A stretch of 64,000 nucleotides of DNA from Thermoanaerobaculia bacterium (GTDB lineage: Bacteria; Acidobacteriota; Thermoanaerobaculia; UBA5066), in contig CAVRAY010000001.1 of the NCBI GenBank assembly GCA_963719225.1, positions 2,624,001-2,688,000 on the forward strand. Direction: 5' to 3'. Positions 24,133-54,177 of this stretch are shown piece by piece. The first letter of the stretch is position 1; the number at the start of each line of letters is the position of its first letter. A model generated the notes under the pieces. It did not search any database, was not told where the DNA came from, and worked only from the letters and a program-made list of their open reading frames with translations. Position numbers and translations under genes: made by a program.

Positions 24133-24868
24133 GCCGGCTCGCGAACGGAGAGAGAAGCGCGCGCCGCGTCACGGCCGGGCACCCGGCGACCGCGAAGCGC
24201 AGCGGCCAGGCGGCCGCCTCTCTCGCGTAGTCCACCCCGACGCGCGGGCCGACGAGCACGTCGAAACGCGCGCGCGGGCCGCGGGAAATCATCAGCTCGG
24301 GACCGGAGAGGGAAGCGCTGGAGAGCGCGGACGTCACACCGAGGTACGCACAGAGCTTCGCGGGACCGGAATAAAGAGATATTTGCTTAGAAAGGGAAGA
24401 GGGGGACCCCCTGCGCGCGCCCACGGCCTTTCCAGCCACCGCCGACGAGGCGCCGCCGCGGCGTCCTGCCCTATTCACCTTCAAAGAAATCTTTGTCTTC
24501 TCTTCTCCTTTCTCTCTCTCCCACTCTTCCCACCACTCCTCCGAAACAGCCGCCCTCAGCAGAACCGCCTCCGGCACGCCCTCTCGCCCCGTCACGACGT
24601 TCATGCAGAAGTGCATGCCGTAGACGAAGTAGACGTAGGCGTGGCCGCCCGGGCCCCACATGGGGGCGACGCGGGGAGTCCGCCGGCCGTTCCAGGTGTG
24701 CGCGGCGCGGTCCTTCGCTCCGAGATAGGCTTCGGTCTCGACGATGACGACCGAGCGCCGCTCGCCGTCCGGAAGCGTTCGAACGAGGCGGCAGCCGAGC
24801 AAATCTCGCGCGACGACGGCGGTCTCGCGGCGATAGAAGGACTGCGGAAGCGGACGGAGAGGCGGCAC
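24119..24868 (-). CDS. mpg: DNA-3-methyladenine glycosylase (MPG/AAG family) with an internal insertion
   Basis: IVETEAYLG, YVYFVYGMHFCMNVV, AVLLRA, GPAKLC, PRVGV; unusually long AVLLRA-to-GPAKLC segment. Confidence 0.9.
   Translation of the reverse strand: MPPLRPLPQSFYRRETAVVARDLLGCRLVRTLPDGERRSVVIVETEAYLGAKDRAAHTWNGRRTPRVAPMWGPGGHAYVYFVYGMHFCMNVVTGREGVPEAVLLRAAVSEEWWEEWEREKGEEKTKISLKVNRAGRRGGASSAVAGKAVGARRGSPSSLSKQISLYSGPAKLCAYLGVTSALSSASLSGPELMISRGPRARFDVLVGPRVGVDYAREAAAWPLRFAVAGCPAVTRRALLSPFASRPRAS
24370..24523. repeat. Inverted pair of intragenic TTC-N3-GAA motifs in mpg
   Basis: Minus strand 24370-24400: TCTTCCCTTTCTAAGCAAATATCTCTTTATT. Plus strand 24472-24523: TATTCACCTTCAAAGAAATCTTTGTCTTCTCTTCTCC... 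Confidence 0.8.
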
Positions 24869-24883
24869 GCTATCCTCCGCCGC

Positions 24884-25828
24884 ATGATGCCCGAGACGCG
24901 TTCCGTCCTCGTGACCGGCGGCGCCGGTTTCATCGGCTCCCATCTCGCGGACGCCTTTCTCGCGGACGGCAAGACAGTCGTCGCCCTCGACGACCTCTCG
25001 ACCGGCCAGAGCTCACGGCTCCCGAGAGGGGTCCGATTTGTCGAAGGCGACATTCGGCGCTTCGATCTCGCGAGCCTCCTCCGCGAGTCGAACGTGGACA
25101 CGATCCTCCACTACGCGGCGCAGATCGACGTGAGAAAGTCCGTCGAGGACCCCGTCTTCGACGCCGAGGTCAACGTCCTCGGCACGATTCGGATCGCACA
25201 GGCGGCCCTCGCGGCCGGTGTCACCCAGATCGTCTTCGCGTCCAGCGGAGGCGCGATCTACGGCGACCCGGAAGGCTTCGCGGCGGACGAGAGCCACCCC
25301 ACGAACCCGGTCTCCCCCTACGGCGTCGCGAAGCTGGCCGGCGAGAAGTACCTCTTCGGCCTCGCGCACGGAACCCCGCTCGTCGTGACCGCCTTGCGGT
25401 TCGCGAACGTGTACGGGCCGCGCCAGGACGGGCGCGGCGAGGCGGGGGTGATCGGCATCTGGATGAAGAAGCTCCTCGAAGGCGGCGAATGCCTCATCAA
25501 CGGCGCCGGCGACCAGTCGCGCGACTTCGTGTTCGTGGGGGACGTCGTCAAGGCAAATCTCGCGGCGGCCGCGAACCGCACCGCCGGCGTCGTCAACGTG
25601 GGCACGGGCGTCGAAACGTCCGTGAACCGTCTCTACGATCTCGTCGCCGCCGCGTGCGGGACTTCGCGGCCCGCGCGGCGCGGGCCGGCGAAGGCCGGAG
25701 AGCAGATGCGCAGCGTTCTGGACGTGACGAAGAGCCGCTCGGCCCTCGGCCTGACCGCTCTCGTGGAGCTTCCGGACGGTCTCAGCCGGACGGCGGAGTG
25801 GTTCCGCCAGACGGCGCCACCGGCCTGA
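24884..25828 (+). CDS. NAD-dependent epimerase/dehydratase (GalE-like extended SDR)
   Basis: VLVTGGAGFIGSH, YGVAK, LRFANVYGPRQ, RDFVFVGD. Confidence 0.9.
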   Translation: MMPETRSVLVTGGAGFIGSHLADAFLADGKTVVALDDLSTGQSSRLPRGVRFVEGDIRRFDLASLLRESNVDTILHYAAQIDVRKSVEDPVFDAEVNVLGTIRIAQAALAAGVTQIVFASSGGAIYGDPEGFAADESHPTNPVSPYGVAKLAGEKYLFGLAHGTPLVVTALRFANVYGPRQDGRGEAGVIGIWMKKLLEGGECLINGAGDQSRDFVFVGDVVKANLAAAANRTAGVVNVGTGVETSVNRLYDLVAAACGTSRPARRGPAKAGEQMRSVLDVTKSRSALGLTALVELPDGLSRTAEWFRQTAPPA

Positions 25829-27047: not shown

Positions 27048-27081
27048 CCTAGCCGAACGTCACGCGCTTGCACGGCGCGTG

Positions 27082-28566: not shown

Positions 28567-28626
28567 CGGGTGCATTTTAGCTGAACAAGGCCTCCTTGGA
28601 TACCCGGGGGGGCCCTACAATCGGCC

Positions 28627-33440: not shown

Positions 33441-33447
33441 GCCTCGA

Positions 33448-35226: not shown

Positions 35227-35265
35227 GGCGAGCCAGCTTAACCGAGAGGCAGCTAACCTTCCCGG

Positions 35266-36879: not shown

Positions 36880-37689
36880 TCAGCCCTTCGTCGTCGCAGC
36901 CGCGAGCGCGCGCACGAGGCCCGCGGCGGCTTCGACGGGATCCCGGCCCTCCTGAAGGGCCTCTTCCATCGAGCCCACGACCGCGCTACCGACGACGACT
37001 CCGTCCGCGAAGGAAGCGACGGCGCGCACCTGCTCCGCCGTGGAGACGCCGAAGCCGACCGCGATCGGAAGGCGTGGCACGTTCTTCCGGACGCGGGCGA
37101 CGAGCGCCTCGAGCCCAACGGGAAGCTCCGTGCGCGCTCCCGTGATGCCCGCGCGCGACACGACGTAGAGGAACCCGCGCGACAGCGATCCCGCCCGGCG
37201 GATACGCCCGTCCGGAGAGGTCGGCGCCACGAGATACACCGGATCGAGCTTCGCGCTCTTCAGGATCGACGCGAATCCGCGGCCCTCCTCGGGCGGAAGG
37301 TCCGTGACGAGAACCCCGTCCGCACCCGCCTCGGCCGCGCGGTGCGCGAATTCGGCCTCGCCCATCGCGAGGATCGGGTTCGCGTAGGTGAAGACCACGA
37401 CGGGTGCTGCGAAGCGGGCGGCGCGCAGCTCCGCGAGCAGCGAGAGAGCCGCCGGCAGCGTCGTCCCCGACGCGAGCGCGCGCTCGCTCGCGCGCTGGAT
37501 GACCGGCCCGTCGGCGAGAGGGTCGCTGAAGGGGATCCCGAGCTCGACGACGTCGGCCCCGGATTCCGCGAGCGCGGGCAGGAGCCGCCGCGTCGTCGCG
37601 AGGTCCGGGTCGCCGGCCTCCACGAACACCACGAGAGCCGCGCGACCCGAAGCCTTCGCTCTTCCGAAGGCGCGCCCGATGGGATTCAC
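36880..37689 (-). CDS. trpA: Tryptophan synthase alpha chain
   Basis: [33 protein letters not shown]. Confidence 0.95.
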
Positions 37690-38906: not shown

Positions 38907-40350
38907 CTCGAACCTCCTTCACGAACGCCGCGATCTTCGCCGGGTCTTTGACTCCCGGCGCCGTCTCGACGCCCGACGAGACGTCCACGACGTCGGGTCT
39001 CACCTTCCTCACCGCGTTCGCCACGTTCCCGGGCTGCAGTCCGCCCGCGAGCACCACGGGTCTCGAGCGATCGATCCCTTCCAGGAGACTCCAGTCGAAG
39101 ACGCAGCCCGTGCCGCCTCCCGCTCCGGCGACGGACGTGTCGAAGTGGAGGGCATCGCCTTCGGCTTTGCTCGCCGAGGAGAGGTCGTCGCGGCCGACGC
39201 GAATGGTGTTCCAGAACGTGATGTCCGAAGAGAAGAATTCCTTAGAAGGTGAAAGAGCGGGGTTGGGCATTTGAACGACGTCCGGGCGGACAAGGTCGAC
39301 GATGCGCTGCACGTCCTCTTCCGTCGCCGTCTCGTCGAAAACCGCCACGACGCCCTTCACGCTGCCTTTCGCTTTCATTCGCAGAAGTCTCCCCTCTTCA
39401 GGCGTCAGTCGCCGCGGCGACCGCGGCGCGAAGACGAGGCCGATCCAGTCCACGCCCTGTTCCAGACAGGCATCCACGTCTTCCCCCCGCGTGATCCCGC
39501 AGATCTTGACCTCCGTCGCGTTCTCGCCGCGCAGCGCGCGCAGCGTCGCGGCGGGGTCCGTAGCCTTGAGAAGCGTCTCACCCACCAGAAAGGCACCATA
39601 GCCCGCGGCGGCGAGCGCCTCGACATCGTGCCGCGACCGGATGCCGCTCTCGGCCACGCGCGCGACCGACGCCGGAAGGAGCGCGCCGAGGCGCGCCATT
39701 CCGGCCAGGTCGACTTCGAAAGTCCTCAAGTCGCGTGAATTCACGCCGACGATCTCGGCGCCCGCGCCGAGCGCCCGCTCGATCTCCCCCTCGTCGTGCG
39801 CTTCCACGAGAACCGCGAGTGCGCGGGACCTCGCGGCCGCATGGAGCCGCCCGAGGGTGGCGTCATCGAGGGCCGCGACGATGAGAAGCACGGCGTCGGC
39901 GCCCAGAGCGGCCGCAAAGTCCAGCTGGATCTCGTCCACCACGAAGTCCTTCATGAGGACGGGCAGGCCCGACGCCGCCTTCGCGCGTGGCAGCCACGAG
40001 GGGTCGCCGCCGAAGAAATCCTGCTCGACGACGACGGACACCGCCGAGCCGCCGCCACGCCGGTAGGCGCGCGCGACGGTTTCGATGCGCGACGCGGCGT
40101 CGGGAAGGATCAACCCCGCGCTCGGCGAGCGGTGCTTGATTTCGGCGAGAAACACAGGAAGAGGAAGAGAAGAGATTTGCTTAGAAGGGGAAGAGAGGGA
40201 ACGCGCGAAGCCGACTCCGTCCGGCGGAGCAGCGGGCTGCGCTGCAGCGGCAGAGGCGCGCACCTGGGCACCCATCTTGGCGGTGAACTCCCCCGCCGCG
40301 ATGCGCCGCCGCTTTGCCGCGAGAATCTCGCTCAGAACCGATTCGCCCAC
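38899..40350 (-). CDS. trpCF: Bifunctional indole-3-glycerol-phosphate synthase / PRA isomerase
   Basis: [26 protein letters not shown], then VKICGIT, GGTG..FDW, LAGGL, DVSSGVE in one frame. Confidence 0.92.
39227..39399. repeat. Intragenic motif in the TrpF domain with a weak inverted partner
   Basis: Minus 39227-39257: TCTTTCACCTTCTAAGGAATTCTTCTCTTC. Plus 39372-39399: CTTTCATTCGCAGAAGTCTCCCCTCTTC. Confidence 0.65.
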
Positions 40351-40390
40351 CCCTCTTACCCCTTCTAAGCAATCTTCAATCTTCTCTCTC
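40157..40390. repeat. Inverted motif pair in trpC and at the trpD/trpC junction
   Basis: Minus 40157-40197: CTCTCTTCCCCTTCTAAGCAAATCTCTTCTCTTCCTCTTCC. Plus 40353-40390: CTCTTACCCCTTCTAAGCAATCTTCAATCTTCTCTCTC. Confidence 0.82.
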
Positions 40391-41419: not shown

Positions 41420-41985
41420 GCGAGCCGCCCGGCGACGAAATTCTTCAGGAGACGCTCCCCCTGGGGCGTGAGGATCGACTCGGGATGGAACTGCACGCCC
41501 ACGAGCGGGAGTGTCCGGTGCGCCAGTCCCATCACGAGGCCGTCCGCGCTCGTCGCCGTGACGCGCAGCGCGGCGGGTACCGAATCCTTCTCGACGACGA
41601 GGGAGTGATAGCGCGTGGCCGTGAACGGGTTCTCGAGGCCTTCGAAGAGCCCTCTCCCGTCGTGCGCGATCTCGGAGGTCTTTCCGTGCATGAGGACGGG
41701 CGCCCGGGAGACCTTTCCGCCGAAGACGGCGCCCAGAGCCTGATGGCCGAGACACACGCCCAGGAGCGGGATGGTCTCGTTCCGGCGGAAGAGCTCGCAC
41801 GAGATCCCGGCATCCTCGGGGCGGCCCGGCCCCGGTGACACGACGAGCCGGTCGGGCTTCGCGGCGAGAACCTCGTCCACGGACAGGGCGTCGTTCCGCA
41901 CCACGCGGACGTCGTCGTCGAGGGTCGACAGAATCTGGACGAGGTTGTATGTGAAGGAATCGTAGTTGTCGATCACGAGGATCAT
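41416..41985 (-). CDS. trpG: Anthranilate synthase glutamine amidotransferase subunit
   Basis: IDNYDSFTYNL, SPGPG, GVCLGHQ, QFHPES. Confidence 0.95.
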   Translation of the reverse strand: MILVIDNYDSFTYNLVQILSTLDDDVRVVRNDALSVDEVLAAKPDRLVVSPGPGRPEDAGISCELFRRNETIPLLGVCLGHQALGAVFGGKVSRAPVLMHGKTSEIAHDGRGLFEGLENPFTATRYHSLVVEKDSVPAALRVTATSADGLVMGLAHRTLPLVGVQFHPESILTPQGERLLKNFVAGRLA

Positions 41986-43364
41986 CGGTACGTCCCCGCT
42001 CTCTCCACGGCGCGCATGAGAGCGCGCGCCTTGTTCTCGCATTCGGTGGCCTCGGACTCTGGATCCGAGTCCGCGACGATCCCCGCCCCGGCCTGGATGT
42101 GCATCGTGCCGTTCGCCACGACCGCCGTTCGAATCGCGATCGCGACGTCGAGGTTGCCGGCGAAGTCGAGATAGCCCACGGCTCCCCCGTAGGCCCCCCG
42201 TCTCACGGGCTCGAGATCCTCGATGATCTCCATCGCGCGAATTTTCGGCGCCCCGGTCAGCGTGCCCGCCGGAAACGTGGCGGTCAGCGCATCGACGGCG
42301 CCCTTGTCGGGCGCGAGGACGCCCGTCACTCGCGACGCGATGTGCATGACGTGCGAGTAGCGCTCGACGTGGAAGAAGTCCTTGACCCGGATGCTGCCGG
42401 CCTTCGCGACCCGGCCGAGGTCGTTCCGGCCGAGGTCCACGAGCATCACGTGCTCGGCGCGCTCCTTCGGGTCGGCGACGAGCTCCCTCTCGAAGGCGAG
42501 GTCCTCCTCCCGCGTCGCCCCACGCGGCCGGGTCCCGGCGAGCGGAATCGTCTCGGCCGTCGACTCTCCCGCTGAGGCGGCCACGTGGACGAGACGCTCG
42601 GGGGACGCGCCGAAGATCGCGCCGTGAGGCGTTCTGAGGTAGTACTGGTAGGGCGAGGGACTGAGGGAGCGCAGGGCGCGATAGACCGCGAAGGAATCGC
42701 CCGTGAACGGCGCGGACCACCTCCGCGAGAGGACGACCTGGAAGACGTCCCCCGCGCGGATGTGCTCCTTCGCGCGCTCGACGGCGGACAAGAAGGACGG
42801 AAGAGGAAGAGATTCTTCGAATGAGAGAGAGGGGGACGGAGCCGGAGCCGTGGGCACGGGCGTCGCGGTGGCGCGGGCTTGAAGGTCCCGTAGCCTTTCG
42901 AAGGCTCTCTTGTCCTCGCCGGTTCCTTCCCCGGCGTGGGTGACGAAGAGAAGCCGGTGACGCACGTGATCGAACGCGATGACCGCGTCGAAGATCCCGA
43001 ACCAAGCGTCGGGCATCCCGATCGGGTCAGGCTTCGAGTCGGGCAGCCGCTCGAGCCGGCGCACCGCGTCGTAGCCCACGTAGCCGACGGCCCCGCCCGT
43101 GAAGGGAGGCAGGTCCTCGCCTCCCGCCGCCGTCACGTGGCGAGGAAGCGTCCGGAGCGCGTCGAAGGGATCGCTCGCCCGGCCCGAGATCTCGCCCGAC
43201 GGCGACGCGCCCAGGAACGACCAGCGCGCGACACGGTCTCCGCCCTCGACCGATTCGAGGAGGAAGCACGGCCCACCCCCGGAGAGGAGTCCACGCATCA
43301 ACGCGACCGGAGTCGTGAGATCCGCCGGCTGCTCGACGACGACCAGCTGCCCGGGCGCTTTCAC
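41982..43364 (-). CDS. trpE: Anthranilate synthase component I
   Basis: [44 protein letters not shown]. Confidence 0.95.
42799..42915. repeat. Intragenic motif in the trpE linker with a weak inverted partner
   Basis: Minus 42799-42831: CTCTCTCTCATTCGAAGAATCTCTTCCTCTTCC. Plus 42893-42915: GCCTTTCGAAGGCTCTCTTGTCC. Confidence 0.55.
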
Positions 43365-44794
43365 GGCCTCTCTCGGCGCGGCGCCTTCCGGCGCTCGACG
43401 AGCTTCAGAGCGACCTCGCCCGGCGCGACGCCGCGCGCCGTCAGGAGAACGGCGAGATGGTAGAGCAGATCGGCCGCCTCGCCGGCGAGCGCTCCCGCGT
43501 CGCCGGTGACCGACGCGAGCGCCGTCTCGACGGCTTCCTCCCCCACTTTCTGGGCGATGCGCGGCACGCCGGCATCGAGGAGCTGATTCGTGTACGACCC
43601 GGCGACCGGCGACTCCTTCCGCGCGCGGACGACCGCGAAGAGAGCCGTGAGGTCGAGCGCGTCCGCGGATCCCGCATCCTTCCCGGCGACCCCCAGCGTC
43701 TCGACAGACGAGAAACACGAATCCGCCCCGGTATGGCAGGCCGGACCCGACGGACGAACGTCGTAGAGCACGGCGTCGTCGTCGCAGTCGAGCGAGATTC
43801 CGACGACGTGCTGCACGTTTCCGGACGTCTCCCCCTTCTTCCAGAGCTCCTTCCGCGATCGGCTGTAGAAGTGCGCCAGGCCGGTCTCCCGCGTCCTGGC
43901 GAGGGCCTCCGCGTTTGCCCAGGCGAGCGTGAGGACGTTGCCCGTCACGACGTCACGCATGATGACGGGGACGAGCCCGCTCGCGTCGTAGCGGGGCAGG
44001 AGAGTGCGCACGTGCGCCGGCGCGGGACGAACCGCGAGCCCGGCCCGGCGCATCGCTTCCTTGACCGCGCCTACCGTGAAGACGCGGTCGTGGAAAAGTG
44101 AGGCCGCGAGCACGGCGTCCGCGCCGCCGATGACGACGGCCTTTGCGAAATCGTCGAGCTGGCCGGCTCCCCCTGAAGCCACGATCGGAACCTCGACGGT
44201 CGCACGCACCGAACGGAGCATCTCGAGGTCGAACCCCGCCTGCGTTCCATCCGCGTCGACGGACGTCAGGAGGATCTCGCCCGCGCCCGCTGCGGCTGCC
44301 GCGGAGGCCCATCCCGTCACGGTCCGGTCGGTCGGACGGCGTCCCCCATGCGTCATCACGCGCATCACCGAGACGCCGCTCGCGTCGCGCAGACGCTTGC
44401 CGTCGATCGCGACGACGACGCATTGCGATCCGAATTGCCCGGCAAGCCTCGTGATGAGAGAGGGGTCTTCGACCGCGGCGGTGTTCACGGTCACCCGGTC
44501 GGCCCCGGCGCGGAGAAGCGCATCCGCGTCCTCGACGGACCGGACCCCTCCACCAACGGTGAACGGGATCGAGAGAGCTTCGGCCACGTGCGAGACGAGC
44601 TCCACGAGCGTGCCGCGCTTCTCGTGAGCGGCGCGGATGTCGAGGAATGCCAGCTCGTCGGCGCCTTCTGCCTCGTAGCGCACCGCGGCCTCGACCGGAT
44701 CGCCCGCGTCGCGGAGGCTTTCGAACGAGATGCCCTTGACGACGCGCCCGCCCGCGACGTCGAGGCAGGGGATGACGCGAACCGCGACCGTCAT
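43361..44794 (-). CDS. hisF-hisIE: HisF-HisI-HisE fusion
   Basis: [19 protein letters not shown], then [44 protein letters not shown] in one frame. Confidence 0.92.
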
Positions 44795-45588
44795 GAAGAC
44801 CTCCCCTGGTCGCGGGCCGCCCTCAGCCGCGACACTGTCGTGGCGCCGGAATGAAGCGCGCGGCCGAGGATGGCGCCGCGAGGTCCGCCCGCGAGCGCGT
44901 GGTTCACCAGCTCGAGGTCTTCTTCGCCGCGCATGCCGCCCGACGCGAGGATCTCGCCTCCGAACACGCGGCGCACGGCGGACAGGAGCTCGAGATTCGG
45001 GCCGGTCATGGCCCCGTCCCGCGAAACGTCCGTGACGAGAAGAGCCGAGACGCCGAGATCCGCGAGCGAGCGGGCGGCGGAAACGGCGTCTCCCATTCCG
45101 GCATCCTCGGTCCAGCCACGCACCGTCGGACGCCCGTCCTTGCAGTCGAGAGCGACCACGATGCGGGACGACAAAGACGAAGAGGAAGAGGAAGAGGAAG
45201 AGGAAGATTTTCTTAGAAGGTGCGTGAGGGCTGCGCGGTCGAGCAGCGCAAGGCTGCCGATAACCGCGCGTGCCCCGTTCCCCCTTTCTAAGAAATCTTC
45301 AACAGCTGCGGCCGTACGCAGCCCTCCCCCGACCTGCACAGCGACCCCCGCAGCGTCCGAAACAGAAAGAATTTCTTCGATCTCCTGTTCGTTGCTGCCC
45401 GTCCCGAACGCCGCGTCGAGGTCCACGACGTGGATCCCGTCGGCGCCCTCGGAAGCGAATCGCTCCGCGGCCCGGGCGGGGGGCTCGTCGTAATACGTCA
45501 CCTCTTCGCGCTTGCCTTTCAGCAGCCGGACGACGTGGCCGCCCATGACGTCGATCGCGGGCCAGAGAGCGAGTCGCTCGTCGCTCAC
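44791..45588 (-). CDS. hisA: ProFAR isomerase with poly-Ser insertion
   Basis: [35 protein letters not shown]. Confidence 0.92.
45171..45302. repeat. Inverted motif pair in hisA, one arm extended by (TCTTCC)n
   Basis: Minus 45171-45223: GCACCTTCTAAGAAAATCTTCCTCTTCCTCTTCC... Plus 45278-45302: TTCCCCCTTTCTAAGAAATCTTCAA. Confidence 0.82.
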
Positions 45589-46214
45589 GCCGCGTCCTCT
45601 CTAAGAAAATTCGAAAGGAGGATGCGGCCGCTTTCCGACGACTTCTCCGGGTGGAACTGGCAGCCCCAGACGCTTCCCCGCTGCACGATGGCGGCGAATT
45701 CCCCGCCGTGGTCGCAGGCCGCCGCGACGTCCGCGGCGTCGACGCCCTCGGGCCTGAAGGAATGGACGAAGTAGACCCAGCTTCCGTCCGGCAGTCCCTC
45801 GACGAACCCGTCGGGGCGACGGGTCAGGAGCTGGTTCCAGCCCACGTGGGGCGTGCGGACGCGCGCGCCGAAGGGGCGGACGCGGCCCGGCACGAGCCCG
45901 AGACCCTTGTGCACTCCGTGCTCCTCGCTTTCCTCGAAGAGGAGCTGGAAGCCGAGGCACAGGCCGAGGAGCCGCCCTCCGCGCTTGACGGCGGCACGCA
46001 CGGCGGACTCGAGGCCGGTCTCGAGAAGGCGGCTCATCGCCGGTTCGAAGGCGGCGACGCCGGGAAGCACGAGCCGTCGGGCGGATGCCACGCGGTCGAG
46101 GTCGGCCGTGAAGTCCACCTCCGCGCCGAGGCGACGGAACGCCCGGATCACCGAGGCCGTGTTGCCGACCCCGTAGTCGACGAGCGTGACGGACGAGCCG
46201 GCGGGCGTCGTCAT
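45585..46214 (-). CDS. hisH: Imidazole glycerol phosphate synthase glutaminase subunit
   Basis: DYGVGN, GLCLGFQ, PHVGWN, YFVHS, QFHPEKS. Confidence 0.95.
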   Translation of the reverse strand: MTTPAGSSVTLVDYGVGNTASVIRAFRRLGAEVDFTADLDRVASARRLVLPGVAAFEPAMSRLLETGLESAVRAAVKRGGRLLGLCLGFQLLFEESEEHGVHKGLGLVPGRVRPFGARVRTPHVGWNQLLTRRPDGFVEGLPDGSWVYFVHSFRPEGVDAADVAAACDHGGEFAAIVQRGSVWGCQFHPEKSSESGRILLSNFLREDAA

Positions 46215-46807
46215 GCCGTGAGCGTTCCTTTCGTCGAAGGCACGTCCGTGCCCGTGACCGCCATCGCCTGGCGCAGCGCGCGCGCCGCCGACTTGAAGAC
46301 CGCCTCGGCCGCGTGATGGCCGTTCTTCGCGCGGACGACGTCCACGTGAAGGTTGAACTTGCCGCGAAACGCGGCGGACTTCCAGAATTCCTCGACGAGC
46401 GCGAACGGAAAGTCCTTCGTGACGAGGAGGAGCTCCTTGTCGACCGGCGACTCGAAGACGATGTAGGGCCGGCCCGAAAGGTCGACGACGGAGCGCGCGA
46501 GCGCTTCGTCGAGGGGGACGAGGGCCGTCCCGAATCGTTCGATTCCCGCCCGCGAGCCGAGCGCCTGGTCGAGCGCCTCGCCGAACGCGAGGCCGACGTC
46601 CTCGACGGTGTGATGGGCGTCGATGTACACGTCCCCCGCCGCGCGCACCGTGAGGTCGACGCGCGCGTGCTTCGCGATCGTCTCGAGCATGTGCGACAGG
46701 AAGCCCACCGGCGTCTCCACGTCCGCCCGTCCGTCGCCGTCGAGAGCCAGGGCCAGGGAAATGGACGTCTCCTTCGTCTTCCGCTCGACCGTTCCGGACC
46801 GGCTCAT
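46211..46807 (-). CDS. hisB: Imidazoleglycerol-phosphate dehydratase (monofunctional)
   Basis: RKTKET, DAHHTVEDVG, DLSGRP, NGHHAAEAVFK. Confidence 0.95.
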   Translation of the reverse strand: MSRSGTVERKTKETSISLALALDGDGRADVETPVGFLSHMLETIAKHARVDLTVRAAGDVYIDAHHTVEDVGLAFGEALDQALGSRAGIERFGTALVPLDEALARSVVDLSGRPYIVFESPVDKELLLVTKDFPFALVEEFWKSAAFRGKFNLHVDVVRAKNGHHAAEAVFKSAARALRQAMAVTGTDVPSTKGTLTA

Positions 46808-47870
46808 ATCACCTCCAGGAAGGACTCGAGGAAGAGATCGTTCTCGGCCTGTGACCCGATCGAGACCCGCAGCCGTCCGGGCGCAGCCGACGTCATGTCG
46901 CGGACGAGGATGCCCCGGTCGAGGAGGCCGCGGCGCACCCGCGGCGCATCGGCCCCCGGGGGCGTACGAAGAGGAAGTTGGAACGCGAGCTGGCGACGGC
47001 GGAGCCGGCAGCGCGAAGCGTCGCGGCGACCCGTTCACGTTCCGCCGCGATCCTCCTCACGTGCTCCCGCGAAACCTCCGGATGGGAGAGAACGGCGATG
47101 GCCAGCTCCTCGGCCGCGAGGTCCACGCTGAACGGCAGGATGGCCTTCTCGACCTCGCGGACGAGCGCGGGATCCGCGACCGCATATCCGATGCGAAAGC
47201 CCGCCGCCGCGTAGGCCTTCGAAAGGGTGCGGAAGACGACGAGGTTCGCGCGCGGGCCGACGAGGGGGAGCGCATCGTCCGCCGGCTCCGCGAAGTCCAC
47301 GTACGCCTGATCGAGAAGGACGACCCGGGCGGCGTCGAGGAGGCGCTCCAGGAAATCTTTCCCGACGACGCCGCCGGTCGGGTTGTTCGGCGAGCAGACG
47401 AGCGGAACGGCGCCCGGCTCCCGCGAGGCTTCGAGGAACGCGTCCTCGGCCAGCGCGAAGTCGGGTCCGGTGCGCGGCACCTCGGCGACACGCGAAGAGG
47501 CGATCGCGGCGATCTGCCGGTAGAGCGAGAACGTGGGCGTCGGGAGCACGAGGGTCCCTCCGCCGGCAAACACGGACACGGCGGCCAGGATCACCTCTCC
47601 CGAGCCGTTCCCGACGACGATCTCCTCCGGGCGTCGGCCGACCGCGTCCGCGATGGCCCGTTTCAGGCGCGGCGCTCCGAATTCCGGATAGCGGCCCCAC
47701 CTTTTCGCCGCGAGGCGCGCGAGGACCTCGGTGCGGATCTCCTCGGGCACGTCGAACGGCGACTCGTTGAAGTCCAGCTTCGCGCGGAGCGGCGGCGCGT
47801 CCTCGGGGACGAGGCGATAGGCCTCGAGCGCCCGGATCTCCTCGCGGATCGGCACGGTCCGGCGCGTCAT
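46804..47870 (-). pseudogene. hisC: Histidinol-phosphate aminotransferase with an apparent 1-nt frameshift at ~46953-46962 (may be an assembly error)
   Basis: LDFNESP, GNGS, SPNNPTG, DQAY, RTLSKAY..AGFRIGY. The expected C-terminus (GILVRD...LRVSIGSQAEND..LE) lies in another frame and ends in an ATGA overlap with hisB. Confidence 0.85.
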
Positions 47871-49276
47871 GGCGCCCTCCGTTCGAGCGCGGCCGCGTGC
47901 GCCGCGAGGCCTTCGAAGCGCGCGAGAGCGGCGGCCGGCCGCGCGAGCCGGCGCGCGGCGTTCGCCGTCGCCTTCACCGATCGGCCCCAGCGCCGGAAAT
48001 CGCGCACGGAGAGGCCCGAGAAGCTGCGCGCCGCGCCCCCGGTCGGGAGCACGTGGTTCGGACCGGCGAGGTAGTCACCGAGCGCGGTCGGTGTCGAAGA
48101 GCCGATGAAGAGGGCGCCTGCGGTCGGAAGAAGCTTGCCGCTGAATCTCTCCGCGGACTTCCCCATCAACTGCACGTGCTCTGCGGCGATCTGCGAGCCG
48201 GCGGAAGCAGCGAGAGATATTTCTTTGAAAATGAAGATCCGGCCGCGCCGGAACAGCGAGGCGCGCGCGGCGGCCGCATTCACCTTCAAGGAAAACGAAT
48301 CGAGGGCTCGCAATTGGGCCGAGACCGCGGCCCGTACTGCGGCGGCGAGCCTGCTTGAATTCGTAAACAGAAGACACATCGCGTCCGGATCGTGCTCGGC
48401 CTGTGCCAGAAGATCCGCCGCCACGAGGTCCGCGTCGGCATCGGCGGAAGCGACGATCAGGACTTCCGACGGACCCGCCGGCATGTCGACCGCCACGAGG
48501 CCCGACACGAGGTGCTTCGCCGCCGCTACGAAGCGGTTGCCGGGGCCCACGATCTTCGCGACACCACAGACGGAGACGAGCCCCGCGACTCCGTGAGCGC
48601 CCCCCGCGAGCAGCACCTCGTCGACACACAGCTCGCGCGCCGCCCACCGGAGCTCGGGACTCGCCTCCCAAGCGTTGGGCGGCGTCGCGACGACCACGCG
48701 CGGCACCCCCGCGACGCGCGCCGGCACGACGCCCATCAGGAGCGAAGACGGATAGAACGCACGGCCTCCCGGGACGTAGACGCCGACGGATTCGAGCGGC
48801 ACGGATTTCTCGACGAACGAGACGCCGAGGGAGTCCTTGAAAGAGAAGCCCGACGAAGACGATGAGAGCTGCTTGCGGTGATACGCCTCGATGCGGCGGC
48901 GGGCGAGGCGGAAGGCAGAAGCGAAAGACTGATCCACACGAGATGGCTTTTCAAGACACGGATCAATACAGATCTTCTTAGAAGGGTAATGGGGCCGCTC
49001 GCTTTGTCGCACCGCCGTCGTCGGTCCGTCACGCCGCTGCCCCTCTCCCCCTTTCATAGAAACCGTTCTCTTCGAACCGTGGGCGCGCGCCGGTTTGAGG
49101 TCGAAGCGCTCCACGTACTCCCGGAGCGCGGGTTCCCCTCTTCGCAGAACGTCCTCCACAACCGGCAGGATCTGCTTCAACGTGGAGAAGTCGGGCGCCG
49201 CGCCCCGCCGGCTCTTCAACAGCGTTTCCAGCTCCCGTCGCCCCTCGCGCGTCGACGCGTCGACGGTCTTCATCAC
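47867..49276 (-). CDS. hisD: Histidinol dehydrogenase with an N-terminal-region insertion
   Basis: GVYVPGG, KIVGPGN, DMPAGPSE, QAEHD, AAEH, GDYLAGPNHVLPT. Confidence 0.93.
   Translation of the reverse strand: MMKTVDASTREGRRELETLLKSRRGAAPDFSTLKQILPVVEDVLRRGEPALREYVERFDLKPARAHGSKRTVSMKGGEGQRRDGPTTAVRQSERPHYPSKKICIDPCLEKPSRVDQSFASAFRLARRRIEAYHRKQLSSSSSGFSFKDSLGVSFVEKSVPLESVGVYVPGGRAFYPSSLLMGVVPARVAGVPRVVVATPPNAWEASPELRWAARELCVDEVLLAGGAHGVAGLVSVCGVAKIVGPGNRFVAAAKHLVSGLVAVDMPAGPSEVLIVASADADADLVAADLLAQAEHDPDAMCLLFTNSSRLAAAVRAAVSAQLRALDSFSLKVNAAAARASLFRRGRIFIFKEISLAASAGSQIAAEHVQLMGKSAERFSGKLLPTAGALFIGSSTPTALGDYLAGPNHVLPTGGAARSFSGLSVRDFRRWGRSVKATANAARRLARPAAALARFEGLAAHAAALERRAP
48212..48296. repeat. 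Inverted motif pair in the 3' part of hisD
   Basis: Minus 48212-48237: TCTTCATTTTCAAAGAAATATCTCTC. Plus 48278-48296: ATTCACCTTCAAGGAAAAC. Confidence 0.72.
48965..49073. repeat. Inverted motif pair bounding the hisD insertion
   Basis: Minus 48965-48990: ATTACCCTTCTAAGAAGATCTGTATT. Plus 49043-49073: CTCTCCCCCTTTCATAGAAACCGTTCTCTTC. Confidence 0.72.
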
Positions 49277-50913
49277 GACTTCCCGGTCCCCGCGCGCACG
49301 TTCGCGCGCAGGCGTTCGACGAACGCCGCGATCTCGGTCCGCCGCGCCACGAGCGCGCCACGCCCGAGGATGAGCGTCGCGCGGCTCGGAAGAATCGTCT
49401 CGATCTCGGCGAGTCCGTTCGCGGCCATCGTGGATCCCGACTCGATCAGGTCCACGACGACGTCCGTGAGCTTCAACGCGGCGGCGAGCTCCACGGAGCC
49501 CGCGAGAGGAACGATCTCGTGAGCGATCTTCCTCTCGTCGAAATAGCGGGCGGCGAGGCGGCGGTACTTCGTTCCCACGCGCACGGGCTGCCCGTCCGGT
49601 CTGAAAGTCTCCCCGGCCCTCCCGATGAGCGACAGTCGGCACGCTCCGAAGGGCAGCTCGACGGGCGACGTCACGTCCTCTCCGCTCTCGGCGACGCGGT
49701 CACTGCCCACGATGCCCAGATCGGCGCCTCCGTGCGCCACGTAGGTTGGCACGTCGTCGTCCTTGAGCAGAAGGAGCTCGAAAGCGCCGTCCGCCGCGGA
49801 AACGAGAAGACGCCTGCCGTCCGGGTCGTCGAACGCAGCGCCTGCCGCGCGGAGCACCGCGAGCGCCTGCGGCAGGAGCCTTCCCTTGCCCACGGCGATC
49901 CGGAGGGGTCGCGTTCCCCCGTCCGCGTCGGCGCCGTCGATCGCGGCGCCGAGCGCCTCGAGCCCGATGCAGAACCCGAGAGCGGGTGCGGCTGTTCCAA
50001 AGCGAGCGAGGAGGCCGTCGTACCGGCCGCCTCCGGCGATCGTACCCTCTCCGCCCGAGGCGTCCACGCTGAACGTGAGCCCCGTGTAATAGGGAGCCAA
50101 CGGGGTATCCGCCAGGTCCACGACGACCGGCAAGCCGGGCCTTGCGGTTTTCGCCACGGCGACGGCCCGCGCGAGCTCCGCGGCAGCGCCCGCGAGAACC
50201 GGCAGCCGGAAGAGTCCCGAGCCGGAATCGAAGCCGACGAGGAGAGCACGGGCAACTTCCGAGGCGGCCTCTTCGGTCGCGCCCGACCGGAAGAGCAGCG
50301 CTTCGAGCTGCGTCACGTGCCGCGCCCGCGCCGTCGCGGCAGCCTCGGTGAGGCCCGCGCCCCCTCCGCGCGCCAGAGCCGGCGCGACGGCGGCGAGCAA
50401 CCGTTCGAGAAGGCCCGCCCAGCCCAGCGTCAGCCTCAGGCGCTCGGCAGGAACGTCCCCGAGACACGAGAGCGCGAGGGCGAGCATCTCGCCGTCGACT
50501 TCCGGCCGTCCGTCGCCGTAGCGCTCCGCTCCCACCTGCGCGAACTCCCGCCGCCGCCCGACGCCCGTCTCTTCATCGCGCACGACGTCGCCCCTGTAGA
50601 ACAGCGACACGGGATCCGAGATCGCGCCGAGGCGCGGCGCGACGACGCGTGCCGCCATGGGCGTGAAGTCCGCCCGAAGAGAAAGAGTGTTGCCCTGCCG
50701 GTCGAGGAACCGGTAAACACGCTCGTCTCCCTCGGCCGTCACGCCGGCGTAGGGATCCGCGAAATCGAGGACCGGGAGGATGACCTCGCGCAGGCCGGCC
50801 TCCTGGAGCTTCCGAACGACGGAATCCTCCGCCTTGCGGCGCCGCTCGGCCGCGTCGAAGAGGAACGCCTGTACCCCGCGCGGGAGGTTGGGATCGGGAC
50901 GGTCGGACTTCAT
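49273..50913 (-). CDS. hisZ-hisG: HisZ-HisG (short form) fusion, ATP phosphoribosyltransferase
   Basis: LPRGV.., LRADFT..AR, REFAQVGAE, YYTG, GGGRYD, ALGF, then LRIAVGKGRL, DVPTYV..G.ADLGIVG.D, GSVELA, DLIESG.T. Confidence 0.9.
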   Translation of the reverse strand: MKSDRPDPNLPRGVQAFLFDAAERRRKAEDSVVRKLQEAGLREVILPVLDFADPYAGVTAEGDERVYRFLDRQGNTLSLRADFTPMAARVVAPRLGAISDPVSLFYRGDVVRDEETGVGRRREFAQVGAERYGDGRPEVDGEMLALALSCLGDVPAERLRLTLGWAGLLERLLAAVAPALARGGGAGLTEAAATARARHVTQLEALLFRSGATEEAASEVARALLVGFDSGSGLFRLPVLAGAAAELARAVAVAKTARPGLPVVVDLADTPLAPYYTGLTFSVDASGGEGTIAGGGRYDGLLARFGTAAPALGFCIGLEALGAAIDGADADGGTRPLRIAVGKGRLLPQALAVLRAAGAAFDDPDGRRLLVSAADGAFELLLLKDDDVPTYVAHGGADLGIVGSDRVAESGEDVTSPVELPFGACRLSLIGRAGETFRPDGQPVRVGTKYRRLAARYFDERKIAHEIVPLAGSVELAAALKLTDVVVDLIESGSTMAANGLAEIETILPSRATLILGRGALVARRTEIAAFVERLRANVRAGTGKS

Positions 50914-52490
50914 GCGGGAATCTCAGGATGGGGATGAAGCGACTCTTCGAAGAATTGGAAAGCCATCCGCAAGCGGGAAGGCAGGCGCTCGAGAAGCTCT
51001 CTTGGAGTCGTCCGCTTTCCCGTGAAAAGCGTTGCCTGGCCCGCGGCCTGGAGCAGGAGCAGCGTCTGCCCATCCACGACGCGCGCCCCGGCAGCGCGTG
51101 CCGCCTTCGCGAGCTCGGTGCCGCCCTCTCGGTAGGGCGCGTCGATGACGAGCATACCGGGGCGGAGGAGGCCCGGGTCGCACGGGAGGGGATCCCCCGC
51201 GCGGAGACCGAGGGAGGTGGCGTTGACGATGACACTCGCGGCGGGCCATGCCGCTTCGGACTTCTTCGAAAGCGCGCGCACGCCGGTTTCTCTGGCGAGG
51301 TCTTCGCCGCGCTCCTTGGTCCGGTTCGAGAGGAAGACCTCCCATCCCCTTTTTCTAAGAACATCCACCGCGACCCGAGCCGCACCACCAGCCCCGAAGA
51401 CGATTGCGACCCCCGCATTCGCTTTCTCTTTCCTTTTCTCCCTCAAAGGATCTTCAATCACGGCCTCGAAGGCATCGCGATCCGTGTTTGTCCCGCGCAG
51501 TCGGAGCGGCTGGCCCGGGGCGCTCGACCTGAGCAGCGTGTTGACCGCCTTCTCGCCGTCCTCGTCCGTGCCGGCGAGATGCGCGGCCTCCTCCTTGAAC
51601 GGGATGGTCACGGACGCGCCGGCGAGAGGAAGTCCGAGGCTGTCGAACGTCGCGACCAGCGGCTCGAGCTCCTCCGTTAGCGAGCGCATTGCGAACGGTA
51701 CGTAGAGCGAATCCTGACTGAGCGCCTCGAAGCTCGCGTTGTGGAGGGCGGGCGAGAGTGAGTGCGAGACGATGCCTCCCAGGAGTCCGAAGAGCCGGGA
51801 CACCTTTCGCCTCCGGCCGACGCCGTAGATCTCCGCCAGGTCGAGGGCGAGGAGCTGCCCCGGCGCCGTCCCGCGCCCGGGAAGGAGGGCGCCGTACGCG
51901 AGCGAAGCCCCGAGATACGGCGCGAGTGCGCGCGTGCAGATGCCGACCTCTCCCATGCCGAACGTCGAGAGGCGCCCATCCCGATGGGCGGCCTGGAGCT
52001 CGAGGAGACGGCGGGCATCGCCTGAGTCGTTCGCCGTCGCCACGACTTTCACGAAGCGAGCCTGCGTCGCGAGCATCCGGGCAACGAGGGTGCTCATGTC
52101 GGCAGGGATGCCCTCCGGGTCATGAAGAGAGAGAATTTTCTTAGAAGGGGAAATGCGGGCGGCCTCGTCCCCGCCGTCGCGGCGGAACTCCACGTCGCCG
52201 AGTTCAAACCCGGCGTCCAGAGCCTTCGAAATCAGTCTCTGGGCCTCCCCTGCCGGTCCCCGGAACGTGCCGCCTTCTGATGCGGATCGGACGGTCGCAA
52301 CGAGTGTTCTTCCTTCAAAGCACGCGCGAAGCGCGCCGAATTCGGGCTCTTCGGACATGGCGTCGAGGCGCAGCTCCAGCGCGACCGAGGGAGGCAGCTC
52401 GGCGAGAGCGGAACATGCCCCCAGCGCTTCGGCGTTCGAAGCCGGAGCCACCGAGACGACGAGAAGCGTGTTTTCCGCGGTCTGGGCCAA
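50910..52490 (-). CDS. aroD-aroE: Type I dehydroquinate dehydratase-shikimate dehydrogenase fusion
   Basis: ELRLD, TVR...EGG, SLH, FGMG..G..TR, APGQ, then HSLSPALHN, SVTIPFK, AVNT, NTD, GAGGAA, NATSLG. TTG start inferred. Confidence 0.88.
   Translation of the reverse strand: MAQTAENTLLVVSVAPASNAEALGACSALAELPPSVALELRLDAMSEEPEFGALRACFEGRTLVATVRSASEGGTFRGPAGEAQRLISKALDAGFELGDVEFRRDGGDEAARISPSKKILSLHDPEGIPADMSTLVARMLATQARFVKVVATANDSGDARRLLELQAAHRDGRLSTFGMGEVGICTRALAPYLGASLAYGALLPGRGTAPGQLLALDLAEIYGVGRRRKVSRLFGLLGGIVSHSLSPALHNASFEALSQDSLYVPFAMRSLTEELEPLVATFDSLGLPLAGASVTIPFKEEAAHLAGTDEDGEKAVNTLLRSSAPGQPLRLRGTNTDRDAFEAVIEDPLREKRKEKANAGVAIVFGAGGAARVAVDVLRKRGWEVFLSNRTKERGEDLARETGVRALSKKSEAAWPAASVIVNATSLGLRAGDPLPCDPGLLRPGMLVIDAPYREGGTELAKAARAAGARVVDGQTLLLLQAAGQATLFTGKRTTPRELLERLPSRLRMAFQFFEESLHPHPEIPA
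51256..51459. repeat. Three intragenic motif copies in the AroE domain
   Basis: Minus, core at 51267: TTTCGAAGAAGTCC (weak). Plus 51344-51366: ATCCCCTTTTTCTAAGAACATCC. Plus 51435-51459: TTTCTCCCTCAAAGGATCTTCAAT. Confidence 0.55.
52124..52154 (-). repeat. Intragenic motif in the AroD domain
   Basis: ATTTCCCCTTCTAAGAAAATTCTCTCTCTTC (encodes ISPSKKILSL). Confidence 0.8.
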
Positions 52491-52519
52491 AACGAAAACC
52501 CCCTCCGGTCCGGAGGGGG
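52489..52519 (-). terminator. Intrinsic terminator (attenuator) of the aro-his-trp leader
   Basis: CCCCCTCCG-GAC-CGGAGGGGG followed by TTTTCGTTTT. Confidence 0.85.
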
Positions 52520-52559
52520 CTGGGTGAGTGCTACCTGAAAACCCGCGCGCCTCCGGACC
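52507..52559 (-). promoter_or_regulatory. Antiterminator pairing
   Basis: GGTCCGGAGG (52559-52550) is perfectly complementary to CCTCCGGACC (52516-52507), the terminator 5' arm and loop. Confidence 0.8.
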
Positions 52560-52591
52560 ACGATGGGCCGGCGGCGCGAAGCGCGGCCGGC

Positions 52592-52633
52592 TCAGCTGTG
52601 ATGCACGTGCCAGTGGCGCACGACGAAGATCAT
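52592..52633 (-). CDS. His/Trp-rich attenuator leader peptide MIFVVRHWHVHHS
   Basis: ATG ATC TTC GTC GTG CGC CAC TGG CAC GTG CAT CAC AGC TGA, immediately upstream of the antiterminator/terminator and the aro-his-trp genes. Confidence 0.85.
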   Translation of the reverse strand: MIFVVRHWHVHHS

Positions 52634-52642
52634 GACGGGTTG

Positions 52643-52672
52643 AGTAGACCCGAAACCCCGAGCCCCTGTCAA
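52643..52672 (-). promoter_or_regulatory. Putative sigma70 promoter for the leader and operon
   Basis: TTGACA (52672-52667, overlapping the cysS stop), 18-nt spacer, TCTACT (weak -10), 9 nt before the leader ATG. Confidence 0.5.
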
Positions 52673-54177
52673 GGCTTCCTCCTCCAACGCACGCCCTGGG
52701 GCGTGTCCTCGAGGACGATTCGCTTGCCGAGGAGCTCGTCGCGGATCGCGTCGGCGCCCTTGAAATCCCGGGCCTTCCGGGCCTGCCTTCGGGCCTCGAT
52801 GCGCTCCAGGATCCAGGTCTCGTCAAGGTCGATGGATTCGGAAGAGGATTTCTTGGAAGGTGAAGAGGGGACCGGCGCATCGGGAGCGGAAGCGGCCGAA
52901 CCCACCAGGATGCCGAAAACGTCGCCTGCGACCTCGCTCAAGAGACCTCGTGCGGCCGTCGCATCCGGCGCCGAAAGGTGCCCCGCTTCGAGATCCATGT
53001 TCGTCGCCTTGACGAATGAGAACAGCGCACCCAGGGCGGCGGCGGTGTTCAGATCGTCCTCGAGAGAGGAGAACACCGCGGCGCGCGCCGCCGTCACTCG
53101 CTCCGCGAAGCCCTCTCCCGCTGCCTCCGGCATATTCACCTTCGAAGAAATCTCCTCCTTTTCTCTTCTCCCCTCTCTCTCTCCCAGCCGCATGTCCAGC
53201 GATTCCAGTCGCTCGACCGCGGATGTCGCCGCCTTGAGCCCCTCGAGCGTGAAGTTCAGCTTCATGCGGTAGGGAACCGAGACGAGGAGATAGCGGATGG
53301 CGCGCGGCGAGAAGCCTTTCTCGAGGAGGTCGGGAAGCGTGTAGAAGTTCCCCTTGCTCTTCGACATCTTCTCGCCGTCCACGAGGAGGTGCTCGGCGTG
53401 GAGCCAGAGGTTGACGAACGTCTTCCCGGTCGCGCCTTCGCTCTGCGCGATCTCGTTCTCGTGGTGCGGAAAGATGTTGTCGACGGCGCCCGTGTGGATG
53501 TCGAAGGTCTCGCCGAGATACTTCATCGACATCGCGCTGCACTCGAGGTGCCAGCCGGGCCTCCCGCGGCCGAGCTCGGTCGTCCACGACGCGGACTCGG
53601 GCTCGCCTTCCTTCGCCGCTTTCCACACCGCGAAATCGCGGACGTCCTCCTTCTCGTACTCGTCGTCGGCGACGCGCGCTCCGCGTTTCACGGCCGAAAG
53701 GTCGATCTTCGAGAGCCTTCCGTAGGCCGGAAACGTCGCGATCCGGAACCAGAACGAGCCGTCGCTTTCGTACGTGTGTCCGCGGTCGGCGAGCTTCCGC
53801 ACGAGCGCGACCATCTCGGAGATGTGATCCGTGGCGCGAGGATAGAGCGCGGCCGGGACGACGCCGAGCGTGCCGAGGTCCTCGAAGAACGTCGCGATGT
53901 GCCCCGCCGTGAACTCGCGGAGCGGCAGCCCCGACTCCACGGCGCCACGGATCGTCTTGTCGTCGATGTCCGTGAGATTCATGATCTGGGTCGTCTCGAA
54001 AGAGAGAGCGCGGAACACGCGGCACATCACGTCCTCCCAGACGAACGTCCTGAGGTTGCCGATGTGCACGCGGTTGTAGACCGTCGGGCCGCAGGTGTAG
54101 AGCCCGACCTTCCCCTCTCGGACGGGTCTGAACTCCTCGACCGTGCGGGTCAGAGTGTTGAAGAGGCGCAGCGTCAC
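52669..54177 (-). CDS. cysS: Cysteine--tRNA ligase
   Basis: YTCGPTVY..HIGN, GRPGWHLECSAM, FPHHENEIAQ, KMSKS. Confidence 0.97.
   Translation of the reverse strand: MTLRLFNTLTRTVEEFRPVREGKVGLYTCGPTVYNRVHIGNLRTFVWEDVMCRVFRALSFETTQIMNLTDIDDKTIRGAVESGLPLREFTAGHIATFFEDLGTLGVVPAALYPRATDHISEMVALVRKLADRGHTYESDGSFWFRIATFPAYGRLSKIDLSAVKRGARVADDEYEKEDVRDFAVWKAAKEGEPESASWTTELGRGRPGWHLECSAMSMKYLGETFDIHTGAVDNIFPHHENEIAQSEGATGKTFVNLWLHAEHLLVDGEKMSKSKGNFYTLPDLLEKGFSPRAIRYLLVSVPYRMKLNFTLEGLKAATSAVERLESLDMRLGEREGRREKEEISSKVNMPEAAGEGFAERVTAARAAVFSSLEDDLNTAAALGALFSFVKATNMDLEAGHLSAPDATAARGLLSEVAGDVFGILVGSAASAPDAPVPSSPSKKSSSESIDLDETWILERIEARRQARKARDFKGADAIRDELLGKRIVLEDTPQGVRWRRKP
52841..53186. repeat. Inverted motif pair in the cysS C-terminal domain
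   Basis: Minus 52841-52867: CTCTTCACCTTCCAAGAAATCCTCTTC. Plus 53133-53186: TATTCACCTTCGAAGAAATCTCCTCCTTTTCTCTTCTCCCCTCTCTCTCTCCCA. Confidence 0.82.

Follow-up and report, generated by a model that had tools for sequence, protein, structure and literature searches.

The 64,000-nucleotide window analysed here (C1:2,624,001–2,688,000) belongs to the 4.75-Mb, 68% GC genome of a Thermoanaerobaculia bacterium, assembled in two contigs (C1 and C2) and estimated to be 97% complete with 6% contamination; positions given without a contig name count from window position 1. The TrpB encoded in it shares 95% identity with that of a Thermoanaerobaculia (Acidobacteriota) record, L031. The window carries copies of a directional motif of about 36 bp, which across the genome occurs largely as facing pairs, and the DNA enclosed between paired copies does not follow the tree of the genus. 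The motif is a real DNA signal, not described before, that occurs in pairs throughout the genus and marks short patches bearing signs of exchange between species. A preliminary description of this DNA had recognised the motif and its inverted pairing; the main feature added here is the phylogenetic scrambling, from species to species, of the DNA that paired copies enclose.

Sites were scored with a 36-bp matrix trained by iteration on the genome and are counted at ≥14 bits. The consensus consists of a pyrimidine run, CCTTC, T or G, AAGAAA and a pyrimidine tail of about 20–30 bases; the spaced palindrome previously proposed is present as a dyad core, TTC-N3-GAA, but the motif as a whole has a direction. 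There are 942 sites genome-wide, of which 649–772 are genic, and the 649 in called genes exceed the 145–159 obtained in three synonymous-codon shuffles, so that the motif survives the codon-preserving shuffle suggested at the outset as a way to refute it. In the window, TTCNAAGNAA occurs 13 times against 0.53 expected (none of 100 shuffles reaches 13), and peptides linked to the motif are enriched in the proteome (PSKK 33 against 5.7 expected, FEEI 54 against 7.3). The carriers are genes of all kinds (named by eye), including kinases and membrane proteins, together with intergenic DNA, and the restriction to housekeeping genes that had been claimed does not hold. Outside the window, genes were called with a dicodon model of our own and named mostly by eye; in the window, NCBIfam confirms mpg, trpB, trpCF, trpD, trpE, hisA/B/C/D/F/H, hisZG and aroDE, and cysS was named by eye from its sequence. 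No description of the motif was found in the literature searched, which covered few subscription journals and no supplements.

The geometry of the sites is strongly polarised. Among neighbouring sites within 200 bp, 258 run minus-then-plus and 4 plus-then-minus, with the tails facing outward, and a distant species of the genus (G149) shows the same polarity (65 against 3). Altogether 602 of the 942 sites make 301 pairs, nearly all 56–220 bp apart, of which 180 lie within a single gene and 72 fall between called genes, where some represent trimmed gene starts. A weak facing partner accompanies 34 of 122 strong lone sites, against 2–4 in three other positions. Within a pair, the arms resemble each other no better than arms drawn at random (29.55 against 29.34 ± 0.24 matches), pair spacing has no 10–11 bp period that would indicate helical phasing, and there is no strand bias to replication or transcription (lone sites are 112 leading and 95 lagging; pairs are symmetric). 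This lack of arm covariation, helical period and strand bias points to a protein reading double-stranded DNA, not to a hairpin or RNA signal. Spacer folding is weak (z −0.56 and −0.78), and a hairpin or RNA stem was rejected on the missing covariation, the missing transcription bias and the absence of any Rfam match in the window. A spacing peak at 93 bp stems from kinase paralogues of one family. About ten Ser/Thr kinase paralogues arranged in tandem (C1 2,292–2,322 kb, L129) each carry a 93-bp pair in the N-lobe, and this pair has 16 copies genome-wide.

Discordant history of the enclosed DNA

In 15 genomes the spacers require about twice the parsimony steps, and six of the seven exceed all 25 length-matched controls for discordance. 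In a set of 21 genomes, each retaining at least nine of 15 genes in frame and with frameshifted copies dropped, all seven spacers lie beneath the control windows of the most divergent third (0/50 for six of them and 1/50 for the seventh). Residual congruence is −0.51 inside the pairs and rises outside them from −0.41 (0–30 bp) through −0.38 (30–60), −0.23 (60–100) and −0.13 (100–150) to −0.06 (150–200), the deficit being flat within pairs and fading out by 150–200 bp beyond them; in 12 motif-free genomes these segments give +0.02 inside. Cassette exchange or Chi-like trimming ending at the arms does not fit this outward decay, the signal running about 150 bp past them.

Individual spacers show the same pattern. 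The cysS spacer has a rho of 0.23 against 0.89 in a motif-free genus, and the conserved centre of this 291-bp spacer (identity 0.83–0.88) is scrambled as well (rho 0.09). The log-likelihood (lnL) gap to the genome tree is 129 for the cysS spacer against 0–18 in controls, and 131 for the trpF spacer against 0–21 in eight controls. Distinct spacer alleles, among them a 12-bp hisD indel and two trpE types, are spread over three well-supported clades. A pair is overlapped by 37 of the 58 cross-clade high-identity tracts, where 6.6 ± 2.4 would be expected, and the long tracts (90–330 bp) often reach 100–250 bp past an arm. When the comparison is confined to nine few-contig genomes, five of the seven spacers are still discordant.

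Distribution and origin of the copies

An exact 13-mer of the motif has 63–336 copies in each of 28 genomes of the genus, 1–44 in eight sister-genus genomes and 0–5 in the 139 other genomes of the order, a tally that includes the unpublished genome G019, on which no claim depends. The exact pair pattern occurs in four of 401 phylum genomes, all four from the motif-bearing genus, and no such pair was found in the other 397. The his/trp region is without motif sites in 13 genomes of the motif-free genus and five of other genera. The sister genus has the same hisA 76-bp pair (seen in G139, G136 and G137) and hisD 64-bp pair, and no different motif stood out in the 400 kb of it that was examined. 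In G149, 56 of 70 genic sites occupy the same place as in the present genome, and a 400-kb sample has 40.7 sites per 100 kb in genes shared with this genome against 10.8 in genes without a homologue, the latter value resting on three sites in only 41 genes. No viral contig has the exact pair, and eight carry a single 17-mer at a GC of 0.32–0.46 and without a match to this genome. Two metagenome contigs (L276 and L281, 33% GC) contain the exact pair pattern with no match to the genome, probably by chance in AT-rich DNA.

Copies have been made both by recoding and by insertion. In hisA, hisD, aroE and a CCA-type gene the arms lie on sequence alignable with motif-free relatives, and recoded copies consist of substitutions plus short insertions at the tails, often coding poly-Ser. 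When 73 clusters from G149 and metagenome contigs are compared with this genome, 39 are shared, seven share one arm, 18 are unplaceable, one is replaced and eight, at five loci, are 117–195 bp patches that are absent here and have ragged ends. These ends lie 9–70 bp outside the arms, with overlaps of 3–4 bp at two of the loci and 8–16 bp replaced at the other three. Against the sister genus, five of the 27 placeable pairs of this genome are whole-pair patches, the ancestral state of patches being shown only where the sister genus lacks them. Look-alike units at unrelated loci are few (e.g. C1 947481 and 1963213); 30 of 419 spacer links connect unrelated loci, and spacers are mostly unrelated or native. 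A role of the arms as plain homology anchors was rejected, as identity at sites is no more than background (0.79 vs 0.775). Among the sequencing runs listed as containing this DNA none is an RNA run, and the shares are small. Spacers are collinear in all aligned genomes, and no inversion appears among the joints listed from contigs of four sequencing runs, a listing outside which 233 joints fall and in which rare inversions would be invisible. With sites that are fixed across the genus, missing in relatives and made by recoding and insertion, the earlier suggestion of a system not described before, whose constraint falls on the DNA, is supported.

All 20 motif cores of the preliminary description were recovered to within one base; 17 score ≥14 bits, while hisD 48288 (13.1), hisH 45602 (11.6) and trpE 42900 (0.7) fall short. 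The facing pair in mpg (24371..24501; minus arm 24371–24406, plus arm 24466–24501, 37.8/42.3 bits, centres 96 bp apart) sits in a protein insertion, the NCBIfam 3mg match covering residues 32–151 and then breaking. The claimed likeness of the mpg and cysS copies is upheld by 46 matches in 54 aligned positions, and the cysS pair itself (52837..53162; 291 bp) scores 32.7/39.6 bits. In the trpF part of trpCF, the facing pair with the discordant spacer (39226..39399; 139 bp, 37.1/21.3 bits) has both arms in 16 of 17 genomes, and the facing pair over the trpC start (40165..40384; 185 bp, 39.6/34.3 bits) has its inner arm in all 17. The trpE pair (42800..42918) joins a strong minus arm (34.5 bits) to a decayed plus arm (0.7 bits), and its two spacer allele types are those scattered over clades. 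The hisA pair (45165..45307; 76 bp) is recoded onto native sequence, with an outer TCTTCC-repeat tail that encodes poly-Ser of variable length, and its unit is duplicated in tandem in G011 and, in decayed form, in G007.

The weak single plus-strand copy at the end of hisH (45585..45620; 11.6 bits) is under threshold in all 17 genomes. The inner pair of hisD (48208..48306; 64 bp, 27.6/13.1 bits) encloses the 12-bp indel allele scattered over clades, and its spacer is 97% identical between G007 and G008 against a background of 84%. The N-terminal hisD pair lies at 48962..49074 (78 bp, 33.3/22.0 bits); positions 48990–49098 are missing from relatives' contigs, where the joint skips 109 bases and has seven other letters (runs X1 and X2). 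The aroE cluster (51249..51463) comprises a decayed minus arm at 51266 and plus arms at 51357 and 51446 (1.5/18.5/18.4 bits), the first of which is strong in 11 of 14 relatives. In aroD (52125..52250) a strong minus arm (40.2 bits) has lost its partner at about 52231 in this genome, the partner scoring ≥14 bits in six of 14 relatives, and a 332-bp tract is common to G016 and G008. Absent from the earlier list are a weak facing pair at 2455..2634 (21.5/14.4 bits) and a weak single minus-strand copy at the aroE end (50930..50965; 15.3 bits), and a further motif cluster lies just beyond the window between rpsE and rplO (C1 2,691,021–2,691,195; genes named by eye). The reported lack of clear copies in the 4–18 kb island is confirmed, with zero positions at ≥5 bits there; there are likewise none in 25–38.8 kb and a single one in 54.5–64 kb.

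The peptides said to be shared among unrelated proteins are largely present: PSK[KEQ] in TrpCF, HisD, AroDE and CysS, SxKVN in Mpg, HisD and CysS, and the recoded VEDFLER, SNFLRE and DVLRKRG. SKQIS was found in Mpg as claimed, whereas TrpC shows PSKQ and no SKQIS match. Window positions 36880–54177 form one tightly overlapping cysS-aro-his-trp string with the fused genes aroDE, hisZG, hisFIE and trpCF, a string also found in the motif-free genus. Elsewhere in the genome, pairs seem by eye, without a background count, to be common within or next to genes for repair and for tRNA synthetases; genes with nearby pairs include recA (C1 2,856,150), ssb (C1 1,857,520), comEA (C2 230,180), addA, mutL, recN and recG, and about ten tRNA synthetase genes, also named by eye, have pairs in or near them. 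The region at about 600–800 kb of C2 is an inverted second copy of C2 0–230 kb, with about 60–90% protein identity and a second tmRNA; the contig is probably chimeric and includes a portion of some related genome, in line with the 6% contamination.

Proposed uptake of paired DNA and its rivals

The explanation ranked first is that a facing pair favours entry and recombination of the DNA piece that carries it, probably at the uptake step of natural transformation (a probability of about 0.45), followed by a chromosome-binding protein and then by an intracellular nuclease or recombinase cassette. An uptake signal is also the best fit of the three candidates in the preliminary description. The directional signal of about 36 bp, in facing pairs 60–290 bp apart, would let the fragment that carries it recombine far more often, and the discordance would reflect interspecies replacement by patches of roughly 100–500 bp. 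The uptake bias would act as a molecular drive, so that arms would be held to consensus despite their cost to proteins (recoded residues, poly-Ser tails) and would be scarce in unshared genes, and rare off-target integration of favoured fragments could yield the inserted and duplicated units. A receptor might, more speculatively, grip both arms of folded-back DNA, which would explain why pairs have a single orientation, why spacing starts at about 60 bp and why helical phasing is absent. A bias for pair-bearing fragments would be the simplest single cause of arms, recoding, scarcity, patches and insertions.

Tentatively extended, this reading would make some 300–450 short genome stretches cassettes that flow between species 15–25% apart, with the remainder of each gene left where it is, in a selfish, pair-dependent exchange with its own putative receptor; with similar caution, that exchange may have enough force to alter essential proteins and to give rise to new pairs by recoding and insertion. 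If the uptake reading holds, the old question of selfish drive versus selection for sex would become open to testing, since the patches it favours are short and mapped and come at a visible cost to proteins. At hundreds of known places the genus would have distorted gene trees and species limits, and, by moving 100–500 bp patches across 20% divergence, the signal could serve as a genetic tool.

Several points weigh against uptake of paired DNA. All discordance tests come from one 17-kb operon, the hisA and hisD spacers lose their discordance in the nine few-contig genomes, the sister genus (five genomes) is discordant in only one of six spacers, and in the most distant genome pairs a site is touched by only two of seven tracts ≥80 bp, where 0.9 would be expected. 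Divergence spans a narrower range in the motif-free genus, whose cysS segment also lies above its own controls (lnL gap 17.9 vs 1.3–7.4); in the motif-bearing genus, the cysS centre taken alone narrowly beats controls (45 vs 8–39). The 58 tracts are not independent events, and the short ones may represent convergence on the motif. A site density two to three times higher near the terminus is not predicted by uptake. In Haemophilus and Neisseria a nearby second uptake sequence adds nothing (PMC7811141) and tract lengths run to kilobases, so that the pair rule has no known precedent. Competence itself is not demonstrated by its genes, and among the candidates profiled there is no protein specific to the motif-bearing genera: a FimT/FimU-like pilin is present in 57 of 62 family genomes and not clade-specific, and the same holds for a ComEA with two helix-hairpin-helix (HhH) domains, which is matched over its full length in motif-free genera.

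Among the genome's genes are a type IV pilus set and those for two ComEA-type proteins, ComEC and DprA. The pilin beside comEA has a FimU-like predicted fold (E 5e-3, a weak match). The middle gene of a cluster of three small pilin-like genes (L151:5743–7084) is found in 27 of 28 genus genomes, six of eight sister-genus genomes and, weakly, three others, a pattern that may reflect fast divergence. The poly-Ser linker of the two-HhH ComEA-type protein (L153:7226–7921) is coded by one of the strongest motif copies, and its gene has three sites in or at it.

A doubtful alternative, though the foremost rival to uptake, is that the arms bind a chromosome-organising protein that bridges or brackets 60–290 bp, the sites being kept by selection for this role and the bound or strained DNA becoming a by-product hot spot of repair with foreign DNA. 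The dyad core, the missing arm covariation and the lack of strand bias would all suit such a protein, as would a cluster density of 9–11.5 per 100 kb far from oriC against 3.5–4.2 near it (landmarks are dnaA at C2 326 kb and dif at C1 2.04 Mb), a likewise low density at one end of the G149 main contig and two pairs that flank dif in this genome. The sites are, however, clumped on the main contig (gap coefficient of variation 1.4, the widest gaps reaching 107 kb), rare in genes that are not shared and free of helical phasing. The GC content at third codon positions of site-free genes also drops toward the terminus (0.899 to 0.874), and the origin-side contig looks partly chimeric. The dif association was dropped, as G017 and G004 have no pairs on either side of dif and the pairs vary among ten genus genomes. 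The nucleoid or segregation site suggested earlier is weakened by the same clumping and by the second, ter-linked ParB, which occurs in 168 of the 175 genomes of the order and whose recognition helix is unchanged in motif-free genera. The second parA-parB operon lies directly beside dif (C1 2,037,500–2,039,524; L111:9500–11524), and a dif-like site follows the second ParB in 19 of 21 loci examined. If a chromosome-organising protein were responsible, the motif would still be undescribed, as a chromosome-organising site of a new class that has recombination as its side effect.

Unlikely, in our judgement, is a selfish intracellular cassette, in which a nuclease or recombinase recognises the facing arms and frees or protects the enclosed piece plus some flank, the piece then replacing homologous alleles or inserting elsewhere, with ordinary uptake between cells. 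Whole-pair insertions, tandem hisA duplications and the few look-alike units at unrelated loci are consistent with it, and PMC11893778 offers a precedent in SsnA and its NTS repeat, a sequence-specific nuclease shaping transforming DNA. Against it, the ends are ragged, with 0–4 bp overlaps and no fixed cut distance, and no candidate enzyme tracks the motif. RAYT/Y1 transposases are absent from this genome and present in four of 28 genus genomes against 17 of 17 in the motif-free genus, those found in relatives bearing ends other than the motif; reverse transcriptase (four of 28) has a distribution that does not track it either; RecT was not found with the single query used; and six tyrosine recombinases resemble, by eye, XerC, XerD, an integron integrase and island genes. 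Y1 (HUH) transposase genes of the family (L297, L298, L304, L305 and L306) are bracketed by 26–45 bp terminal inverted repeats starting GGGTCAGGTC; genes so bracketed are common in the family and rare (4/28) in the motif-bearing genus. One small stand-alone GIY-YIG gene, possibly of Ssn type and the only such small gene, lies in a motif-free island (C2 804,819–805,034; L266), about 58 kb from the nearest motif site.

Quite improbable, and largely refuted, is a repeat spread by transposition, whether a MITE (miniature inverted-repeat transposable element), a REPIN or a Rickettsia palindromic element (RPE), whose coding copies would be decayed remains. The two inverted arms around a diverse spacer and the in-frame insertion of some units recall such elements; yet the spacer in hisA, hisD, aroE and the CCA-type gene is native and alignable, there is no arm covariation, little folding, no shared core, no fixed ends and no linked transposase, and 56 of 70 sites are kept in place between distant species. 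The RPE-like candidate of the preliminary description accordingly falls away, since only the arms are shared and the spacers are unrelated or native gene sequence. Least probable of all is that the mosaic signal, around a real motif, is an artefact of metagenome assembly or of convergence in loose protein loops: all genomes are metagenome bins, the hisA and hisD signal is lost in the few-contig subset and arm windows evolve fast, but most spacers remain discordant in that subset, the conserved cysS centre is scrambled, indel alleles and near-identical tracts of 90–330 bp are shared across clades, and divergence-matched controls are congruent.

Comparison with known systems

Chi, KOPS and parS/NBS/matS sites are, like the motif described here, repeated chromosome motifs read by proteins, but the present motif has no leading-strand skew and no confinement to a single region, and exchange extends beyond the sites. 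ParB sites of the parS/NBS type were rejected as the second ParB is not co-distributed with the motif, and intragenic invertons or recombinase cassette exchange were rejected as the spacers are collinear and the signal runs about 150 bp past the arms.

REPIN/RAYT systems share with the motif two inverted repeats around a short diverse spacer and singlets that look like decayed pairs (PMC8049555); here, in contrast, the motif is mostly intragenic, often lies on native coding sequence, has arms that do not form hairpins and lacks a linked RAYT. RPE and MITE families resemble it in their in-frame insertions in unrelated metabolic genes (PMC10969869), but the motif units have no shared body of about 150 bp or peptide beyond the arms, no fixed ends and no regular target duplication, and many copies are made by substitution. 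NTS/SsnA in Neisseria involves a directional repeat with hundreds of copies that is tied to the fate of transforming DNA, but NTS forms a hairpin, has 2% of its copies inside genes, borders the gene of its nuclease and reduces integration (PMC11893778). SPDIR (short-patch double illegitimate recombination) could account for the ragged patch insertions, but it is rare, needs no signal sequence and leaves the motif unexplained (10.1101/2023.11.22.568220).

The closest likeness is to DUS (DNA uptake sequences) and uptake signal sequences (USS) of Neisseriaceae and Pasteurellaceae, which are lineage-restricted, have about a thousand copies in coding DNA in all frames with matching peptides raised, lie in permissive parts of shared genes, are scarce in unshared ones and are linked to recombination (PMC2397512, PMC2817400). 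The present motif likewise has hundreds of copies, is rich in shared genes and occurs in a genome that encodes a pilus, ComEA, ComEC and DprA; its copies are not single and dispersed, with 602 of 942 sites in facing pairs. DUS and USS are described in these sources as acting singly, with close inverted pairs serving as terminators with loops of ≤21 nt (PMC2397512, PMC7811141), a second copy within 100 bp adding nothing (PMC7811141), tracts of 1–7 kb and DUS regions that share the core history (PMC2397512, PMC7811141). Here, by contrast, pairs are 60–290 bp apart with one polarity and enclose discordant DNA, and there is no sequence likeness to DUS or USS. To our knowledge, only two bacterial families take up DNA in a sequence-specific way. 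The same two families are named in PMC11893778 and PMC7811141. If the uptake reading is true, the motif would be a third, unrelated case, and its need for two facing sites would be a new way to select DNA.

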